From: an uncultured Thermodesulfobacteriota bacterium
GTDB taxonomy: Bacteria; Desulfobacterota; CAZCTP01
Assembly: GCA_964501575.1 (NCBI GenBank)
Contig: CAZCTP010000004.1
Span: 9,402 to 73,401, forward strand
Reading direction: 5' to 3'
DNA length: 64,000 bases
The notes below the pieces were generated by a model. It worked only from the letters and a program-made list of their open reading frames with translations, searched no databases and was not told the DNA's origin. Shown here piece by piece: positions 27,617 to 52,755 of this stretch. Made by a program: the position numbers and the translations under genes. Each line of letters opens with the position of its first letter. The first letter of the stretch is position 1.

Positions 27617-28816
27617 CTATTCCAGTATCTCGCTTATTACTCCAGCCCCCACTGTCTTACCCCCCTCTCTTATAGCAAATCTCAACTCCTTCTCCATAGC
27701 TATAGGAGTTATCAAATTAACTATTAATGATACATTATCCCCAGGCATCACCATCTCAACACCCTCAGGTAAATCAACTATACCAGTCACATCCGTAGTC
27801 CTAAAATAAAACTGCGGCCTATAACCCCTAAAAAATGGCGTGTGCCTACCACCCTCCTCCTTACTCAATATATATACCTCACTCCTAAACCTCTTATGCG
27901 GAGTCACACTCCCGGGCTTAGATAATACCTGACCCCTCTCAACCTCATCCTTCTTTATACCCCTCAATAAACAACCTATATTGTCCCCTGCCCTACCCTC
28001 ATCCAATATCTTCCTGAACATCTCTACACTCGTAACAACCGTCTTAGTAGTCTCCTTAAACCCAACTATCTCTACCTCCTCCCCAGACTTTATAATACCC
28101 CTCTCAACCCTACCAGTAACTACCGTACCCCTACCACTTATACTAAATACATCCTCTATAGGCATCAAAAACGGCTTGTCCACATCCCTCTTGGGATCAG
28201 GAATGTAATTATCTATAGCATCCATTAACTCAAACACTACCTTACACTTATCACAATCCTCCTTACCACAACCACACTCCAATGCCCTCAATGCACTACC
28301 CTTAATAACCGGTATCTCATCACCAGGAAAATTATACTCACTCAATAACTCCCTAACCTCTAACTCAACTAAATCTAATAACTCAGGATCATCAACCATA
28401 TCTACCTTGTTCAAAAATACTACTATATACGGTACCCCAACCTGCCTCGCTAATAATATATGCTCCCTCGTCTGGGGCATAGGACCATCTGCAGCACTAA
28501 CAACTAATATAGCCCCATCCATCTGCGCAGCACCAGTTATCATATTCTTTATATAATCAGCATGCCCAGGACAATCCACATGCGCATAATGCCTCCTATC
28601 CGTCTGATACTCCACATGCGCTATCGCTATCGTAATACCCCTCTCCTTCTCCTCAGGAGCCTTGTCTATATCATCAAAAGGCACATAACTCGCTAACTTC
28701 CTATTAGCCAGTATCTTGGTTATCGCTGAAGTCAATGTAGTCTTACCATGATCCACATGACCCACAGTCCCTATATTAATATGTGGCTTAGTCCTCTCAA
28801 ATCTTGCCTTGCCCAT
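27617..28816 (-). CDS. tuf: elongation factor Tu, copy 1
   Basis: 399 aa. [27 protein letters not shown]. Contains an unusual [12 protein letters not shown] segment. The protein and, where I compared it, the DNA are identical to the copy at 43114..44313. Confidence 0.97.
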
Positions 28817-43113: not shown

Positions 43114-44313
43114 CTATTCCAGTATCTCGCTTATTACTCCAGCCCCCACTGTCTTACCCCCCTCTCTTATAGCAAATCTCAACTCCTTCTCCATAGCTAT
43201 AGGAGTTATCAAATTAACTATTAATGATACATTATCCCCAGGCATCACCATCTCAACACCCTCAGGTAAATCAACTATACCAGTCACATCCGTAGTCCTA
43301 AAATAAAACTGCGGCCTATAACCCCTAAAAAATGGCGTGTGCCTACCACCCTCCTCCTTACTCAATATATATACCTCACTCCTAAACCTCTTATGCGGAG
43401 TCACACTCCCGGGCTTAGATAATACCTGACCCCTCTCAACCTCATCCTTCTTTATACCCCTCAATAAACAACCTATATTGTCCCCTGCCCTACCCTCATC
43501 CAATATCTTCCTGAACATCTCTACACTCGTAACAACCGTCTTAGTAGTCTCCTTAAACCCAACTATCTCTACCTCCTCCCCAGACTTTATAATACCCCTC
43601 TCAACCCTACCAGTAACTACCGTACCCCTACCACTTATACTAAATACATCCTCTATAGGCATCAAAAACGGCTTGTCCACATCCCTCTTGGGATCAGGAA
43701 TGTAATTATCTATAGCATCCATTAACTCAAACACTACCTTACACTTATCACAATCCTCCTTACCACAACCACACTCCAATGCCCTCAATGCACTACCCTT
43801 AATAACCGGTATCTCATCACCAGGAAAATTATACTCACTCAATAACTCCCTAACCTCTAACTCAACTAAATCTAATAACTCAGGATCATCAACCATATCT
43901 ACCTTGTTCAAAAATACTACTATATACGGTACCCCAACCTGCCTCGCTAATAATATATGCTCCCTCGTCTGGGGCATAGGACCATCTGCAGCACTAACAA
44001 CTAATATAGCCCCATCCATCTGCGCAGCACCAGTTATCATATTCTTTATATAATCAGCATGCCCAGGACAATCCACATGCGCATAATGCCTCCTATCCGT
44101 CTGATACTCCACATGCGCTATCGCTATCGTAATACCCCTCTCCTTCTCCTCAGGAGCCTTGTCTATATCATCAAAAGGCACATAACTCGCTAACTTCCTA
44201 TTAGCCAGTATCTTGGTTATCGCTGAAGTCAATGTAGTCTTACCATGATCCACATGACCCACAGTCCCTATATTAATATGTGGCTTAGTCCTCTCAAATC
44301 TTGCCTTGCCCAT
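43114..44313 (-). CDS. tuf: elongation factor Tu, copy 2
   Basis: Identical 399-aa translation to copy 1. Preceded by four tRNA genes as in E. coli tufB. Confidence 0.97.
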
Positions 44314-45063: not shown

Positions 45064-45465
45064 ATGAAAATTATAAGAGAAAGATTTATCATATTATTAA
45101 TATTAATATTAACACAAGGTTGTATTGGATCTTTAAAAGCTCAGCTTAGCACTCAAATGGGTAAAAAACCAAATTTTTCAGCTGAAGAAGTAAATAAAAT
45201 AAAAGTTGGTCTTACAACATTAGAAGAAATTAAGGATATGTTTGGAAAACCAAACTATATATCAAAATCAATAAATGGTGAGAATACATTTGGATATATA
45301 TGGGTCAAAGCTACCGGGACTATAAGAGGATCAGGGAAGAGAACCTCTACAGAAGGCGCAGGAACTATAACATCCAATAATATATTTCTAATTATTAAAT
45401 TTAATAGAGAGAAAATTGTTAAATCTTTTGAATTTTCTGATGTTCCTCCGTTTTTATTTAGATAG
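45064..45465 (+). CDS. small lipoprotein, possibly BamE/SmpA-OmlA-like
   Basis: 133 aa. Strong RBS AAAGGAGGGG. Signal peptide ending in the lipobox LTQGC. The mature part resembles SmpA/OmlA (VGLTTLEEIKDMFGKPNYI). Confidence 0.55.
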   Translation: MKIIRERFIILLILILTQGCIGSLKAQLSTQMGKKPNFSAEEVNKIKVGLTTLEEIKDMFGKPNYISKSINGENTFGYIWVKATGTIRGSGKRTSTEGAGTITSNNIFLIIKFNREKIVKSFEFSDVPPFLFR

Positions 45466-45985
45466 AAAAATTACAACTATTTACCTAAATAAATTACTGA
45501 AATAAAGTATCATAAATACTACTTTAAAATCTTAACTACCAAAGGTATTTGAGGTTAAAAATTATGAATATCATTTTTAAATCTTAAGACTATTTTTAGT
45601 AATTTCCTACAGTAATTATAGGTGAAAATTTACACAAACTTTTTGCTTAAAAGTTCATAGATGGAATAGTGTGGAAGTGAGATTGCTTCGCCTTCGGCTG
45701 GCAATGACGTAGCCCGGGAATCGGGGACCGGAAACCGTTGATCGGGAACCGGTAGATATAGGTGATCACAATGACTGCTGAGGACGGAAGACAGATACAG
45801 AAGATATACGAGATAAACGAAATCAACCAGATAAGCACGGAAGTTAGGAAATGAAAAAGTGTAGAAGAAAAGAGTTCATTACTTAATTTAGAATCACTGA
45901 ATTTCCTAAAAAACCTTTGACATCTCAAAGGAAAAATGGTAAAAAATGATTAATAATTTTCCCAAAGAAGGGGGGTGACAGAGGA

Positions 45986-46153
45986 GTGTCTTATAAAATA
46001 ACCGATGAGTGCATTGCCTGTGGAGCATGCCAACCAGAATGTTCTGCAGAAGCTATAAAGGATGGGGATAAATATTCTATAGATCCTGAAAAATGTACAG
46101 AATGTGGGTCATGTGCAGATGTTTGCCCCGTAAGTGCCTGTATACCTGCTTAA
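45986..46153 (+). CDS. 2[4Fe-4S] clostridial-type ferredoxin (55 aa, GTG start)
   Basis: Hand-translated (M)SYKITDECIACGACQPECSAEAIKDGDKYSIDPEKCTECGSCADVCPVSACIPA. Two CxxCxxCxxxCP motifs. RBS AAGGGGGG sits 9-10 nt upstream of the GTG. Under 60 aa, so absent from the ORF track. Confidence 0.8.
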   Translation: MSYKITDECIACGACQPECSAEAIKDGDKYSIDPEKCTECGSCADVCPVSACIPA

Positions 46154-46401: not shown

Positions 46402-48594
46402 ATGGAAGAGAAAGAAAAGTTAGGAACGCTTCTTGTGAAGAAAGGGTTGCTTACACCCTTCCAACTATCTGAAGCATTAAGAATTCAGGAAAAGGGAGAT
46501 CCTAAATCAGGGATTAAGCCTGGTGAAAAACTTGGAAAGATTATAATAAAGAAAGGATATGTTCCTCCCATGGAATTAGTAAGGATTCTATGTGAACAGA
46601 ATAGGAATACCGATTACTTTCTCGTAGGCAAATATTTTTTAATAGAACCCCGATTAACCCGCTTAATACCAAGAGAATTAGCTCTCAGATTTGAAATACT
46701 CCCATTAGTTAGTATAGGAAATGATTTGATTTTGGTAGCTACAAATAGACAATTAAGTAAATATATTATAGAGAATATAGAATACCAGATAAAAAAGAGT
46801 ATAGAACCGATTGTTATAGAAGAAAAGGATTTTATATCAAATATAAAATTATGCTATGACAGATTTGAAAAATTGGAGATGGGGGATGAAAAATTTGGAG
46901 AGCTTTTAGTTAAAGAAGGTCTTTTAATAAAAGGGGATGTAGAATGGGCTATTAAAAAGAGTAGAGAAGAACAGAAGAAACTTATCAGGGTATTGGTAGA
47001 ATATCTAAATATAAATGAAAAAATTCTCTATGAATTTTTAAGTAAAGAGCTGAAGTTAAAGCTTATTAGTGGAGAAGAGGTAATAAAAAATTTGGACAAA
47101 AATATAGCTAAAACATTTTCCAAACCTTTTCTAACATATAATCTACTCGTCCCCTATAAAAGGGGAAATAATACAATATTTATTGCTGTGGCTGACTATA
47201 ATGTAGAGATAGAAGGGATTAAAAAAAATTTTGATATACCGAGTATAGATGTCAGATTGATCTCTTTAACAGATATAAATAGAGTATTTAAATACCTCTT
47301 CCCAGAAGAATCACCTGAAGTTCCTGCAGTTGTGGAGAGTATGGAGTTTGAAGATATTGGTATTGAAGAAGAAGGTTACCCGCTACATGTTACCGATATA
47401 GAGAGCTTAAAACATAGGTATCAAAAGGCTGTGAATAATATATTATTTGAGGCTATAAAGAAAAAAGCAAGTGATATACACTTAGAAAACTATGAAGATG
47501 AGGTCGTTATGAGATTAAGAATTGACGGAACATTGTATGATGAGAAAGGAATAAATATAGGCAAAAAAGATATACCAGGAATAATAAATGTATTCAAGGT
47601 AATATCAAATCTTGATATTGCAGAAAGAAGATTACCTCAGGGAGGAAGATTCAGGAAGAAAACAAAAGGTGGCAACATATACGACTTTAGAATACAGACT
47701 CAACCAACCTTTTTTGGAGAAAACATTGTAATAAGGATATTAAGTCAATCGGGGTCTTTACTGTCACTTGAAGAGCTTGGTTTCTCTGAAGAATTAGAGA
47801 AAAGGTATTTAAGGATTATTCGTAATCCCAATGGATTGATACTATTTGTTGGGCCAACAGGAAGTGGGAAAACAACTACTCTATACTCTACTCTTGAAAT
47901 CCTGAAGAAGGATAAGAAGAAAAAGATAATCACAATAGAAGACCCTATAGAATATTCTTTAAACAGGATTCAACAATCCCAGGTAAAGGAAGAAATAGGC
48001 TATACATTTGCAAGTGCTACAAGAGGATTTCTAAGAGAGGATCCCGATATAATATTAATAGGTGAAATAAGAGACAGTGAAACCGCTATGGAGGCAATAA
48101 GAGCAAGTCAAACAGGCCATCTTGTATTTTCTACTATTCATTCCAATGATACAATAGCTACGGTGCAAAGACTTATGGATATGGGAATCCATCCTAATAG
48201 TATAGCCTCTGAACTCCTTTTATTAATATCACAAAGACTTGCAAAAAAGATATGTCCCCACTGTAAAATAGAATATACTCCTGATAAAGAGATATTGAAA
48301 GAATTCTATGGAAATAATTTACCAAAGGGGATAAAATTTCTAAAAGGAAAAGGTTGTGATAATTGCGATAATCTCGGTCACAAAGGAAGGATAGCTATAT
48401 TTGAGTTCTGGGAGATAGATAATGATATAAAGCTCCTTATAAGTAAGGCATCTGATCCTGTAACACTTTATAATAAAGCTAAAGAGAAAGGATTCACAAC
48501 CCTTCTTGATGATGGATTAAAAAAGGTGGAAGCAGGGATAATAGATATCGAAGAACTCTTAAATATAATCCCTTTATCTATGATATCACACTAA
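46402..48594 (+). CDS. GspE/PilB/MshE-family secretion ATPase with duplicated N-terminal MshEN-like and GSPII_E_N regions
   Basis: 730 aa. Walker A GPTGSGKTT. Asp box, Walker B IITIEDPIE and His box present. C-terminal tetracysteine CPHC...CDNC. The N-terminus has LGTLLVKKGLLTPFQLSEALRIQ / LGKIIIKKGYVPPMELVRIL and a second FGELLVKEGLLIKGDVEWAIKK unit (MshEN-like c-di-GMP-binding motifs). Confidence 0.85.
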   Translation: MEEKEKLGTLLVKKGLLTPFQLSEALRIQEKGDPKSGIKPGEKLGKIIIKKGYVPPMELVRILCEQNRNTDYFLVGKYFLIEPRLTRLIPRELALRFEILPLVSIGNDLILVATNRQLSKYIIENIEYQIKKSIEPIVIEEKDFISNIKLCYDRFEKLEMGDEKFGELLVKEGLLIKGDVEWAIKKSREEQKKLIRVLVEYLNINEKILYEFLSKELKLKLISGEEVIKNLDKNIAKTFSKPFLTYNLLVPYKRGNNTIFIAVADYNVEIEGIKKNFDIPSIDVRLISLTDINRVFKYLFPEESPEVPAVVESMEFEDIGIEEEGYPLHVTDIESLKHRYQKAVNNILFEAIKKKASDIHLENYEDEVVMRLRIDGTLYDEKGINIGKKDIPGIINVFKVISNLDIAERRLPQGGRFRKKTKGGNIYDFRIQTQPTFFGENIVIRILSQSGSLLSLEELGFSEELEKRYLRIIRNPNGLILFVGPTGSGKTTTLYSTLEILKKDKKKKIITIEDPIEYSLNRIQQSQVKEEIGYTFASATRGFLREDPDIILIGEIRDSETAMEAIRASQTGHLVFSTIHSNDTIATVQRLMDMGIHPNSIASELLLLISQRLAKKICPHCKIEYTPDKEILKEFYGNNLPKGIKFLKGKGCDNCDNLGHKGRIAIFEFWEIDNDIKLLISKASDPVTLYNKAKEKGFTTLLDDGLKKVEAGIIDIEELLNIIPLSMISH

Positions 48595-48595
48595 A

Positions 48596-49999
48596 TTGTT
48601 CAGATTAAAAAGAGAGAATCTTATAGACAAAATAAAAAGACTTTTAGAATTAAGGGAGAAAGAGCCTCTGTCACCCAGATATAGCCAGTTGATAGGAGAC
48701 CTTTATGTGATGAATGGTAATATAGATGAAGCGGTTAAATACTATCTTGAATCTGCCTCATTATATGAAAATATGGACGAGCTTAATAAAGCTATAGCCC
48801 TTTATAGAAAGATATTAAAATTAGTTCCTGACAATTATGATACTTATAATAAAACAGGGAATCTTCTTATTAAGATGGGGTTAATTGGAGATGCAAAGCT
48901 GTGTTATCTATTATTGGCTAAATTATATCACAGTAGGAAGAAATATTTAGATGCCATGAATATATTGGACAAAATATTAACCATTGATCCGGATAATATA
49001 GAGATTCTCAACATGTATGCAGATATCGCAGCAAAGGAAAATATGAATTATATCAGTGCTCAGAAGTTATTTAAGATAGGAGATATATATTTTAATCGTT
49101 CTGAATTTAATAAAGCTATTTGTTATTATAAAAAGGGACTAAAACTTGAGCCTGATGAGAAAGAAATAATCGATAAAATAAATGAGATAAGATTAAAGTT
49201 TAATATAGAAGAAGAGGAAATAGATGAAATAGAAGACAGAGATAATAAAATCTTTGAAGGAATTGAGATTGATACATTAAATAAAAGATTGGAAGAAAGG
49301 GGGGATTTGAAATCAACAAATATTAGGTATACTCCTCTCAGAAAAAATATTATTACATATTTATCTATAATATTTTTAATATTTGTTATATCAATTATAA
49401 TGATAAAATTACTTAAAAATGAAAAGATTGAAAAGGTCTTCATTAAATCCATCCCAAAATCTGAGAATAAAATATCTATTAAAAAGAAAGAAATCCCCAT
49501 TCAAAGGAAGAAGACTATTACTGAGGACAAGGAACCTCTTTCTCAAAGGGAAAGAAGTATTAAAGAAAAACTTGAAACTATATGGGAGAATAATACAAGA
49601 TTTAGTGATGTAATAAAGATAACTCTTATTACTCCAAAAGAGATAGAGATATTAAATAGGATAGAAGCAGAAGAAAAGAAATGGAACAAGGAAAGAGAGG
49701 AAAAGGAGTTAGAGAATAAGCTTAATATATTTAATAAATTTGATAAATCCTACTATTTTCTTGTTGAAATCCTAAATAGAGAGAAAGTAAATATAGATAT
49801 TATAAAAAAATCTCTATTATTAATATATAATGGTAAAGAGATAAAAGGGAATTTTATGAAGAATTTACCCTATGATAAGGAAAGGAGAATCTTTTACCTT
49901 AAGTTTAATACAAAAGAAAACATAAAAGAGTTAAACCTTTTATTTAGATACAAAGATAGGGAAAAGGTCTTAAAATGGAATATCTCAAAAGAATATTAA
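48596..49999 (+). CDS. TPR-repeat protein with central TM helix and Lys/Glu-rich C-terminal domain
   Basis: 467 aa. Starts 2 bp after the ATPase stop. N-terminal about 230 aa are TPR-like repeats. TM helix ITYLSIIFLIFVISIIMIKLL. No recognisable catalytic motif. Confidence 0.6.
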   Translation: MFRLKRENLIDKIKRLLELREKEPLSPRYSQLIGDLYVMNGNIDEAVKYYLESASLYENMDELNKAIALYRKILKLVPDNYDTYNKTGNLLIKMGLIGDAKLCYLLLAKLYHSRKKYLDAMNILDKILTIDPDNIEILNMYADIAAKENMNYISAQKLFKIGDIYFNRSEFNKAICYYKKGLKLEPDEKEIIDKINEIRLKFNIEEEEIDEIEDRDNKIFEGIEIDTLNKRLEERGDLKSTNIRYTPLRKNIITYLSIIFLIFVISIIMIKLLKNEKIEKVFIKSIPKSENKISIKKKEIPIQRKKTITEDKEPLSQRERSIKEKLETIWENNTRFSDVIKITLITPKEIEILNRIEAEEKKWNKEREEKELENKLNIFNKFDKSYYFLVEILNREKVNIDIIKKSLLLIYNGKEIKGNFMKNLPYDKERRIFYLKFNTKENIKELNLLFRYKDREKVLKWNISKEY

Positions 50000-51429
50000 A
50001 AGCTTTTTACTTACTACCAATTATACTGTTAATATCCCATAGAGTAAATGGAGATTCTTCGTTGGATAAGTTTATTAGAGATATTAAAAGTGCTAAACCT
50101 GCCAAACATATAGGAGTAAGGTACCAAGTAAATCCTAAAGATACTATATGGGATATATTGATAAGGATATATCGAATACCTCCAGATAGATATAAAAATT
50201 ATATAGAAAGTATAAAATCCCTAAACCCAGAAATAAAAGATATTAACAGAATATACCCAGGAGAAGTAATAATCATTCCCGAATTGCCTTTAAAGAACAA
50301 TTTAATCTTAAATAAAAATATATCTATCTCTCATAAAAGGGACTATTATATTAAGCCTTCAAAAGATAGAGTATTTGAACTATTTTCAAAGCTCAATGAG
50401 GATATAGATTCAGGAGATATATCAATTCCTATATTCAAAAATGGGAAGATAAAAATAAATGGTAAAACTTATCCTACTATTAAGCTAAGAAATGGGAAAA
50501 TAATAATATTAGATTTTGATAATAAAATATCTTCATCTCTAAGAAAAATCATTGAAAAATATCTAAAGGGTTCAGAGATAGTAAGAGTGGAAGGTCCTAT
50601 GAAAAATTTTATTAATAATATATTAAATATCTCAGGTTATTATTCTGTGAGGAAAAATGACAAGATTATTCTTGGGGAGAAGGCTAAAATTATAATAAAT
50701 TGTGACTTCATAGTAGAAAAGAGTAGAAATTCTATAATAGGGGGAAAGATTTACATAATAAATCTTGCAATGAATAGTTCATCATATTTGCCCCAGAATT
50801 TAATAGACTATCTTGAAAGTAGAGAATTCAGAGTTATAGAGATAAAAGGTAATAGGTATAATGATAGAAGAGGTGGTATATACCATAAAGGTGTTATAAT
50901 ATTGATGAACAACTTTAGTCCAAAAGATTTAGTCATAAAATTCCTTGATATAATGGGAGAGAAATATGAAAGAGATATCCCCATAGATGTCACAAGAAGC
51001 TTGTTAGACGGAATAAAATTTACAATAAAAGGAGATATTTCTTTTAAGAAGAATGGCAAGATATATATTATTACATTCTCTGATGTCCCGGAGGATATAT
51101 CCAAGTTTGTAGAAAGATATGGTTTTAAGCTAATAAACATAAAAAATAGTGATAAATTCAGAGATATAATTGACAAGGTATATGGAGAAATAGAATATAA
51201 CTATAAATATGGATCATATATACTTCCTAAGGAACATCCGGTATATAATAGAATAGACATAGAGATTCCTGGTGTTTATATATCAAAATCTAATAAGCAT
51301 CCATTTTATTACAAAGGTTGTTTATCTTTTGCTCCATCTAAGGATTCCCTCATTATTACAGATGTAAAATTATTCAACCCTTTAAAAGATATAATTAAAG
51401 ATGAGGGTTTTAAAATAATAGAATATTAA
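49975..51429 (+). CDS. secreted protein with N-terminal LysM-like domain
   Basis: 484 aa. Overlaps the previous gene by 25 bp. Signal peptide MEYLKRILKAFYLLPIILLISHRVNG. Residues about 50-105 (DTIWDILIRIYRIPPDRY...INRIYPGEVIIIPE) match the LysM pattern. The rest is unassigned. Confidence 0.55.
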   Translation: MEYLKRILKAFYLLPIILLISHRVNGDSSLDKFIRDIKSAKPAKHIGVRYQVNPKDTIWDILIRIYRIPPDRYKNYIESIKSLNPEIKDINRIYPGEVIIIPELPLKNNLILNKNISISHKRDYYIKPSKDRVFELFSKLNEDIDSGDISIPIFKNGKIKINGKTYPTIKLRNGKIIILDFDNKISSSLRKIIEKYLKGSEIVRVEGPMKNFINNILNISGYYSVRKNDKIILGEKAKIIINCDFIVEKSRNSIIGGKIYIINLAMNSSSYLPQNLIDYLESREFRVIEIKGNRYNDRRGGIYHKGVIILMNNFSPKDLVIKFLDIMGEKYERDIPIDVTRSLLDGIKFTIKGDISFKKNGKIYIITFSDVPEDISKFVERYGFKLINIKNSDKFRDIIDKVYGEIEYNYKYGSYILPKEHPVYNRIDIEIPGVYISKSNKHPFYYKGCLSFAPSKDSLIITDVKLFNPLKDIIKDEGFKIIEY

Positions 51430-51444
51430 AAAGACTTAATAAAG

Positions 51445-52755
51445 CTATATTCTTTTTAGGCATGCTGCGAAGAATCCATCCATAATATCTATAAATGGAA
51501 GGGTATTAAAAAATCCATTATTATTAAATAAATTTAACCATTTAGGAACTTCTATTAATATAAAATCTTTGTTATCTTCTAAAAATTTCTTTATAATATC
51601 CTCATTTTCTTCCTTTTCAAGAGTACATACACTATAGACCATAATACCATCCTTCTCTAAAAATCTTGAAACATTATTAATAATATTAAGCTGGAGCTCA
51701 GATAATAAATATATATCCTCTTCCTTTCTTCTCCATTTTATATCAGGATTACGCGATAAGACACCAAGTCCAGAACAGGGGGGATCAATGAGTATTTTAG
51801 AAAACTTAATATTCTTTATACTATCTAAATAAGAAAGGACATCTTCTATAATTATTTTTACGATATCTATCCCAAGCCTTAAACAGCTCCTCTTAAGAAA
51901 TAATTGCCTATTTCTATTTATATCAATAGAATATATTTCCCCTTCATTACCCATCAATTCTGCAATATGAGTTGTCTTTCCTCCGGGAGCAGAACATATA
52001 TCAAGTACTCTATCACCCAAATTTGGACTTAATATATAAGATATTAACTGAGAAGCTTCGTCCTGAACCTGAAACAAGCCATCTCTAAATGACTTAAACC
52101 TCTCAATACTACCAGAACCCCTAATATATATTCCATCTTTTGAAAATTTTGCAGGTGATACCTCTCTCATACCTTCTTTTCGTAATATCTCTATGAGATC
52201 ATCCCTATTTATCTTTAACTTATTCGCCCTTATTGTAATCTGAGGCACTCTATTATTCAATTCACATATTCTCCTTGTTTCCTCAGGGCCATACCTACTA
52301 TACCACCTCTTAACCATCCATTCAGGATGAGAGTATAATATAGAAATATTAGATATAGAGTTATCCGGATACCTTATATATTCTCTATTTCTATCAATAT
52401 TTCTTAAAACAGCATTAACAAATGCTTTAGCATGTTGTTTAACAAGTTTTACAGCTTCATTTATGGCTGCTGAAGGAGGAACTCTATCAAGAAATAACAA
52501 TTGGTATATCCCTAATCTTAGGGCATTCATAATATCGGTATCTATCTTCTTTATATTAGAAAATTCTCCTATTATCCAATCTATCCTTAATCTGTGTCGG
52601 GTGACTCCATATACAAGATCTGTTATAAACGCTCTATCAAGAGAGGATAGGGCCTTTTCTTTATTTAATATATTATTTAATACTATATTAAGATAAGAAT
52701 CTCTCTTTTCTATTCTATTAAGAATTTTTAAGGCTAGTTCTCTCGGGCTCATCAA
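51445..52755 (-). CDS. rsmB: 16S rRNA (cytosine-C5)-methyltransferase RsmB/Sun
   Basis: 436 aa. NusB-like N domain, then SAM MTase with DICSAPGGKT and the PCSG motif (DPPCSGLGV). Confidence 0.85.
   Translation of the reverse strand: MMSPRELALKILNRIEKRDSYLNIVLNNILNKEKALSSLDRAFITDLVYGVTRHRLRIDWIIGEFSNIKKIDTDIMNALRLGIYQLLFLDRVPPSAAINEAVKLVKQHAKAFVNAVLRNIDRNREYIRYPDNSISNISILYSHPEWMVKRWYSRYGPEETRRICELNNRVPQITIRANKLKINRDDLIEILRKEGMREVSPAKFSKDGIYIRGSGSIERFKSFRDGLFQVQDEASQLISYILSPNLGDRVLDICSAPGGKTTHIAELMGNEGEIYSIDINRNRQLFLKRSCLRLGIDIVKIIIEDVLSYLDSIKNIKFSKILIDPPCSGLGVLSRNPDIKWRRKEEDIYLLSELQLNIINNVSRFLEKDGIMVYSVCTLEKEENEDIIKKFLEDNKDFILIEVPKWLNLFNNNGFFNTLPFIDIMDGFFAACLKRI

Follow-up and report, generated by a model that had tools for sequence, protein, structure and literature searches.

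The stretch of DNA analysed here, hereafter the window, comprises 64,000 nucleotides (nt) of contig CAZCTP010000004.1 from an uncultured Thermodesulfobacteriota bacterium, and the subject of this work is a cassette of three genes within it that encodes a secretion ATPase and two putative envelope proteins. The window has a G+C content of about 33% and nearly all its genes lie on the minus strand, including those for ribosomal proteins, rpoBC, two tuf copies, secDF, tgt/queA, recG and carB. The cassette belongs to a plus-strand island bounded by a tRNA cluster with tuf and by the convergent rsmB (51445-52755, minus strand), which lies downstream of gene 3. Gene 1 (46402-48594, plus strand, ATG start) encodes a PilB/GspE-family secretion ATPase of 730 amino acids (aa), gene 2 (48596-49999, plus strand, TTG start) a bitopic tetratricopeptide repeat (TPR) protein of 467 aa, and gene 3 (49975-51429, plus strand, ATG start) an exported LysM protein of 484 aa. 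A first-pass annotation of the letters had described three tightly coupled plus-strand genes inside a minus-strand region, followed by a convergent rsmB, and open reading frames (ORFs) were found at exactly the coordinates it gave. The Joint Genome Institute (JGI) call for gene 2 is identical. In four independent metagenome assemblies the identical three proteins were called, with the gene order unchanged.

The stop codon of gene 1 is separated by 1 nt from the TTG of gene 2, and genes 2 and 3 overlap by 25 nt, which suggests translational coupling. The ATG of gene 3 is preceded by an AAGG motif; no recognisable Shine-Dalgarno sequence was found ahead of the ATG of gene 1 (46402) or the TTG of gene 2 (48596). 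Promoter and terminator scans gave no signal above shuffled expectation. The three genes are probably co-transcribed. A gene for a 55-aa 2x[4Fe-4S] ferredoxin (45986-46153, plus strand) lies 250 nt upstream of the ATPase gene, whose transcript it may share. The G+C content at third codon positions (GC3) of genes 1-3 was 0.22-0.26, equal to that of the neighbouring genes, indicating that the three genes are native. The overall G+C content of genes 2-3 is 27%, a low value attributable to the richness of their products in K, I, N, Y and F. A horizontal acquisition of genes 2-3 was dropped on these two grounds.

The Pfam model T2SSE (PF00437) matched the ATPase with 385.4 bits (gathering score 24.9) over aa 341-720, which places the T2SSE core at 47422-48561 (plus strand). 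Within it, Walker A (47851-47874, plus strand; G484-T491), the Asp box (E513-E517), Walker B (G554-D558) and the His box (T571-H580) showed no variation among 26 aligned orthologues, of which the window protein is one (alignment A2). The same was observed for C618, C621, C652 and C655 of the tetracysteine zinc site (48253-48366, plus strand). A complete GspE/PilB core with these boxes and this site, as initially annotated, was thus confirmed, and the conserved residues suggest that the enzyme most likely hexamerises and hydrolyses ATP. Its closest solved relatives are Geobacter-type PilB, Thermus PilF and Myxococcus PilB. The top solved match was Geobacter-type PilB 5zfr (352 bits), in which chain residues 18-577 aligned with aa 163-722 of the query. 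Since this is essentially the entire PilB, the ATPase corresponds to PilB plus one further N-terminal MshEN module. The scores against the PilB and GspE equivalog models (TIGR02538, 496.6 bits, cutoff 675.65; TIGR02533, 446.4 bits, cutoff 630.25) both fall short of the curated cutoffs.

Two MshEN-like units had been proposed for the N-terminus. Both were matched by hidden Markov models (HMMs), but the first has a long spacer and the second is degenerate in its second half-motif. The NCBIfam model c-di-GMP_motif (NF053729), named for cyclic di-GMP (c-di-GMP), scored 65.7 bits (cutoff 38) in two stretches, the best at aa 6-66. Pfam MshEN (PF05157) reached 47.3 bits (cutoff 23.1), again in two stretches, the best at aa 80-154. 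With both models above their cutoffs, the region belongs to the MshEN domains. The motif pair of MshEN-1 lies at 46417-46599 (plus strand; aa 6-29 and 43-66), and both of its 24-aa half-motifs fit the strict consensus (PMC5013675), with a spacer of 13 aa (EKGDPKSGIKPGE) instead of 5. The spacer residue G32 and the motif-II residue G45 are invariant in all 26 orthologues; in a nine-sequence alignment (A3), G32 and G41 in the spacer and E42 and G45, among the first motif-II residues, are invariant. A GSPII/T2SSE_N-type alpha/beta subdomain of MshEN-1 (46639-46863, plus strand; aa 80-154) coincides with the best stretch of Pfam MshEN. The motif pair of MshEN-2 follows at 46891-47049 (plus strand; aa 164-187 and 193-216) with a 5-aa spacer. 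Its first half-motif fits the relaxed motif only, and its second half, KLIRVLVEYLNINEKILYEFLSKE (KLIRVLVEYLN), has lost both glycines (G->I and G->L) and has E for the terminal Q. The orthologue consensus for this half is intact (LGKVLIExGKVNExDFFxxLSxQ in the 26-sequence alignment). In Vibrio cholerae MshE the spacer is 5 aa long and the substitution G40I abolishes binding (PMC5013675), and in Thermus PilF binding and non-binding GSPII modules stand side by side (PMC11731258). The ATPase probably senses c-di-GMP via MshEN-1, as judged from the motifs, and the unusual 13-residue spacer makes this module a test of the tolerance of the c-di-GMP pocket.

The TPR array of the gene 2 protein (48626-49165, plus strand; aa ~11-190) was matched by the Pfam models TPR_1, TPR_2, TPR_8 and TPR_14, and is followed by an acidic linker (aa 200-250; 15 D+E against 10 K+R). 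A single transmembrane (TM) helix was located at 49349-49411 (plus strand; aa ~252-272), where the 19-residue Kyte-Doolittle mean is 2.96 at aa 252, the sole segment exceeding 1.6. The initial description of gene 2 as a TPR array with one TM helix therefore stands. No signal peptide was found in this protein, which suggests that the TPRs are cytoplasmic and that the C-terminal part is periplasmic. The putative periplasmic part (49412-49996, plus strand) has about 195 residues, made up of a K/E-rich linker and a C-terminal domain, and gave no Pfam match. The top NCBIfam match for the whole protein was SgmX, and the score (53.9 bits, cutoff 1800) reflects TPR similarity only. A single-sequence AlphaFold2 (AF2) model of the protein had a predicted local distance difference test (pLDDT) score of 48; it was unusable and was kept out of the fold search.

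The gene 3 protein starts with a signal peptide (49975-50052, plus strand; aa ~1-26; Kyte-Doolittle value KD15 2.27), followed by a LysM domain (50113-50280, plus strand; aa 47-102). Both had been recognised at first reading, but the remaining ~380 aa, then left unassigned, proved to consist of a small alpha/beta domain of about 85 aa repeated four times in tandem (50347-51426, plus strand; aa 125-206, 207-295, 312-392 and 393-484). Profile-profile comparison of the four segments identified them as mutual repeats, with values of 97% for the third and fourth, 95.7% for the second and third, and 79-84% for the first against the third and fourth. An AF2 model built with the family alignment (mean pLDDT 84.5) comprised a signal helix, the LysM domain, a disordered linker and repeated small alpha/beta units. 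The modelled repeats have an alpha-beta-beta-beta-alpha-beta core that is restriction-endonuclease-like and agrees with the PD-(D/E)xK fold. The catalytic D...(D/E)xK pattern was not conserved in the alignment of 62 family sequences, in which the conserved residues are mainly Gly, Pro and hydrophobic ones. The repeats are therefore most likely structural rather than catalytic. A Foldseek search of the PDB gave weak matches to multi-domain proteins, namely the PrgH periplasmic repeats and gelsolin, with template modelling scores below 0.3. The matches to the three-repeat periplasmic domain of PrgH would fit a tandem-domain scaffold; they do not imply homology. Taken over the three proteins, the domain calls of the first-pass annotation (T2SSE, MshEN, LysM and TPR) were all upheld by HMM searches.

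Word-indexed searches, made either with the single gene 3 protein sequence or with a profile of 62 sequences, gave 2 matches each; an exhaustive HMMER search revealed the family. It was found by phmmer that 525 cluster representatives match at E<=1e-3 and 285 at E<=1e-10, with most of the query length covered. The sources are Deltaproteobacteria, Thermodesulfobacteriota, Syntrophobacterales and Syntrophaceae metagenome-assembled genomes (MAGs). Most relatives carry two LysM domains, and signal peptides are present in nearly all of the 62 aligned members, on which Pfam detected nothing except LysM. The relatives are annotated merely as LysM peptidoglycan-binding domain-containing or hypothetical proteins. 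On sequence similarity, this one envelope protein defines a sizeable uncharacterised family. Neighbourhoods of other family members gave a divided picture. At locus L005 (2762-3559 and 3529-4815) the gene for a distant member, P0002, is followed by a TPR lipoprotein gene, whose best specific NCBIfam matches are PilW/Tgl (below cutoff), and neighbours a convergent gene for a PilQ secretin, which passes TIGR02515 with 401 bits against 284. At loci L006 and L027, on the other hand, no pilus cluster was found.

Homologues of the ATPase that align at full length form an orthogroup of proteins of 730-765 aa with 43-54% identity. Where named, their sources are uncultured Deltaproteobacteria or Thermodesulfobacteriota MAGs and one Planctomycetota MAG. 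The orthogroup is conserved, unnamed and uncharacterised, with its architecture kept in 26 sequences. A scan of the genome collection with the alignment of the ATPase N-terminus yielded nine loci, all of them in genomes other than that of the window, and a metagenome scan one short contig. Gene neighbourhoods were surveyed within 10 kb at about 16 distinct orthologous ATPase loci. The usual array, found in L007, L008, L010, L012, L013, L015 and L026, is yebC-ruvC-ruvA-ruvB-queH, the archaeal-type S-adenosylmethionine (AdoMet) synthase gene metK, a DksA/TraR zinc-finger gene, the ATPase gene, a radical SAM gene and a NUDIX gene. The small DksA/TraR-type zinc-finger gene is immediately upstream of the ATPase gene in L008/L009, L012, L015 and L019; a similar gene is found downstream of it, on the opposite strand, in L010/L011.

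No PilC/GspF, secretin, GspL/M or prepilin peptidase gene was detected in any of the surveyed loci. The description of the window ATPase as an orphan, given for one locus, thus extends to the survey: the family is an orphan as a rule. Pilin genes were encountered beside it, however. In L019 (846-1310) and in L024 (1021-1470) a type IV pilin gene, with N_methyl and ComP_DUS above the gathering score, lies directly upstream of the ATPase gene or of its DksA-like neighbour. Upstream of the ATPase gene, L015 has a short ORF resembling a prepilin gene (1768-1944), and L007 a pilin gene at a distance of 9 kb (500-1081). These pilin genes tie the orthogroup to type IV filaments and argue against a pilin-free machine.

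The window was searched for other pilus or secretion parts. No matches were obtained by phmmer with Escherichia coli HofC, GspF, GspD, GspC, GspL, GspM, GspO, PpdD and GspG, nor with a PilQ query, and nothing emerged when the window was scanned for prepilin motifs or for a second T2SSE ATPase. The earlier remark that pilin, PilC, PilT and secretin genes are absent nearby agrees with these window-wide results. A 133-aa ORF (45064-45465, plus strand), 0.9 kb upstream of the cassette, carries a signal of the lipoprotein type (…LTQGC) and matched no Pfam model; it was rejected as a pilin, being lipoprotein-like and devoid of a prepilin motif. Between this ORF and the ferredoxin gene, the patch 45650-45830 appeared G+C-rich by eye only. 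A non-coding RNA at this position was dropped, given that there was no Rfam match at E<=1 and that the fold stability was ordinary (z = -0.4). Further upstream, the two tuf genes (43114-44313 and 27617-28816, both minus strand) lie about 14 kb apart and encode 399-aa EF-Tu proteins that are 100% identical; one copy follows fusA and the other adjoins the tRNA cluster.

The explanation that we favour, at somewhat less than even probability, is that the three genes form an unusual set of accessories to a pilus machine of the ordinary kind, whose own genes lie elsewhere, and not a stand-alone machine. The ATPase would be of the extension type, serving a type IV filament as PilB, PilF and MshE do. 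Responsive to c-di-GMP, it would power the assembly of pilins by way of a PilC-type platform whose gene lies in another part of the genome. The products of genes 2 and 3 would be native, lineage-specific envelope accessories that tether or position the ATPase. The TPRs of the gene 2 protein may dock or position the ATPase in the cytoplasm, for which SgmX, the FimV TPR and MshN offer precedents, and this protein would reach through the inner membrane to the exported gene 3 protein. The latter would hold peptidoglycan via LysM, and its four repeats would form a scaffold in the periplasm, perhaps at the secretin. We infer all the protein-protein contacts of this scheme, as well as the remaining machine parts.

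Several observations weigh against such an accessory set. Relatives of the TPR-TM or LysM protein were found by phmmer at none of the approximately 16 orthologous ATPase loci, and the three-gene cassette was seen in one species only, so the operon had to be given up as a conserved module. Tight spacing had also been offered as functional evidence. The L026 orthologue, however, abuts metK and the radical-SAM/NUDIX genes with gaps of 3-24 nt, and this equal compactness makes tight spacing weak evidence for shared function in such genomes. Two of the three other LysM-family contexts that were read lack a pilus gene or cluster: in L006 a PilW/Tgl-like TPR gene lies 1.2 kb from the family member with no further pilus gene, and in L027 the member lies between smc/ftsY and efp. 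The pilus link of the LysM family is therefore suggestive, not general, and the size and spread of the family (525 clusters) fit a general envelope role. Genes for PilC, pilins and secretins were not found in the window, the ATPase does not reach the PilB cutoff, and the 13-aa spacer leaves c-di-GMP binding at MshEN-1 a prediction from the motif. Much of this evidence also serves the main rival, according to which the adjacency is incidental: the ATPase would act as its orphan orthologues do, in a pilus or as a c-di-GMP-responsive signalling ATPase, and genes 2-3 would encode general envelope or peptidoglycan proteins. The partners missing from every orthologous locus, the unrelated genes packed as tightly around the L026 orthologue, and the very widespread LysM family with its housekeeping contexts (L027, L006) all suit this rival. 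We nevertheless regard it as rather unlikely. All three proteins bear traits typical of trans-envelope filament machines, and the 25-nt overlap with the 1-nt gap suggests translational coupling. Moreover, in L005 the gene of one LysM-family member adjoins pilQ and a pilW-like gene, and it would be remarkable if that of another came to abut a PilB-type ATPase gene by chance.

Two other rivals depart further from the accessory set. The first-pass annotation had suggested a self-sufficient minimal c-di-GMP-gated envelope machine without pilins, PilC platform or secretin. Platform, pilin and secretin genes are indeed absent from the 64-kb window, only pilins occur near the orthologues, and the ATPase scores under both equivalog cutoffs. 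Absence within 64 kb, however, says little on the whole genome; the two partners do not accompany the ATPase at orthologous loci, and pilin genes adjoin its orthologues, as in L019 and L024. To our knowledge, all characterised PilB/GspE-family ATPases work through a polytopic platform protein, which counts against such a machine as well. We consider it very unlikely, and there is no evidence for a new kind of machine. A module for DNA uptake by a competence pilus, in which a PilF-like ATPase acts with a LysM protein that holds or binds the incoming DNA via its endonuclease-fold repeats, appears highly improbable. The pilins beside orthologues match the ComP_DUS model, the repeats are restriction-endonuclease-like in their modelled fold, orthologues are positioned after ruvCAB, and Thermus PilF, with several GSPII domains, drives transformation (PMC11731258). 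Yet ComP_DUS is a general pilin-fold model, the ruvCAB synteny is that of a housekeeping operon, the repeats have no conserved catalytic or obvious DNA-binding motif, and none of the genes comEA, comEC and dprA is nearby.

A broader proposal, which we hold to be quite unlikely, is that the LysM plus four-repeat family is a new peptidoglycan-anchored scaffold for type IV filament machines across Thermodesulfobacteriota, functionally replacing TsaP/FimV. The bitopic TPR protein would here wire this scaffold to a c-di-GMP-sensing PilB paralogue; in the extreme form of the proposal, the trio would function without any PilC platform. If true, it would provide a direct trans-envelope link from a second messenger to the cell-wall/secretin layer. 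Should the linkage of the three genes be functional, as in the favoured accessory set, it would offer a first way into the function of two unnamed families, the two-MshEN PilB-like orthogroup and the proteins with LysM plus four repeats of a nuclease-like fold. If the linkage is incidental, the cassette consists of three ordinary, poorly annotated envelope and pilus genes.

Compared with known systems, the ATPase resembles PilB of the Geobacter/Myxococcus type (PDB 5zfr, 5tsg and 3jc8) in its T2SSE core, Walker A/B, Asp and His boxes, tetracysteine zinc site and one aligned MshEN/GSPII N-domain. In contrast to PilB, it has an additional N-terminal MshEN (aa 1-160) and lies outside any pilB-pilT-pilC cluster. 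It shares with Thermus thermophilus PilF (core 339 bits against 6f8l) consecutive MshEN/GSPII modules ahead of the core, with motifs kept unevenly. PilF has three GSPII domains, two of which bind c-di-GMP (PMC11731258). The window ATPase has two modules, not three, its 13-aa spacer has not been described for PilF, and the lineage differs. The mshM-mshN-mshE genes of V. cholerae likewise combine an MshEN motif on an extension ATPase with an adjoining gene for a TPR protein, mshN being next to mshE (PMC4624765). MshE, however, is encoded within a complete mannose-sensitive haemagglutinin (MSHA) operon with secretin, platform and pilin genes. In the window the TPR gene is downstream of the ATPase gene, its product is bitopic, and other msh-like genes are absent at the locus. 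The TPR array of the gene 2 protein is a candidate adaptor for a PilB-type ATPase, in the manner of Myxococcus SgmX and Bdellovibrio Bd2492. SgmX, a TPR protein, is required for PilB localisation (PMC7519303); it is soluble and has 1060 aa, whereas the gene 2 product is bitopic and has 467.

The cassette had been described as a split FimV, and it does contain the parts of FimV/HubP: a LysM on the periplasmic side, TPRs and an acidic region on the cytoplasmic side, and a single TM helix. In FimV/HubP one polypeptide carries them all, the periplasmic LysM at its N-terminus, then the TM helix and the acidic cytoplasmic region, and the FimV TPR motif at its C-terminus. Here the parts are divided over two proteins and the polarity is reversed, the TPRs being N-terminal and the periplasmic part C-terminal; the four alpha/beta repeats of the gene 3 protein have no FimV counterpart. 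No FimV-named NCBIfam family matched either protein at E<=1. The split FimV thus reduces to an analogy of domain content. TsaP is a LysM protein that forms a ring on PilQ, and its C-terminal domains are FlgT-C-like beta-rolls (bioRxiv 10.1101/2020.05.29.123786). The gene 3 protein is similarly exported, its LysM lies at the N-terminus and is joined by a flexible linker to tandem domains at the C-terminus, and one of its relatives adjoins pilQ. The sequence relationship is limited to LysM, and the alpha-beta-beta-beta-alpha-beta, endonuclease-like fold modelled for its repeats differs from the two FlgT-C-like beta-roll domains that define TsaP. The likeness to FimV, TsaP and GspA/B is one of logic, with homology to none of them. 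If the linkage of the three genes is functional, they would add to FimV/HubP and to TsaP or GspA/B a third, non-homologous solution for connecting the motor of a type IV filament with the cell wall.

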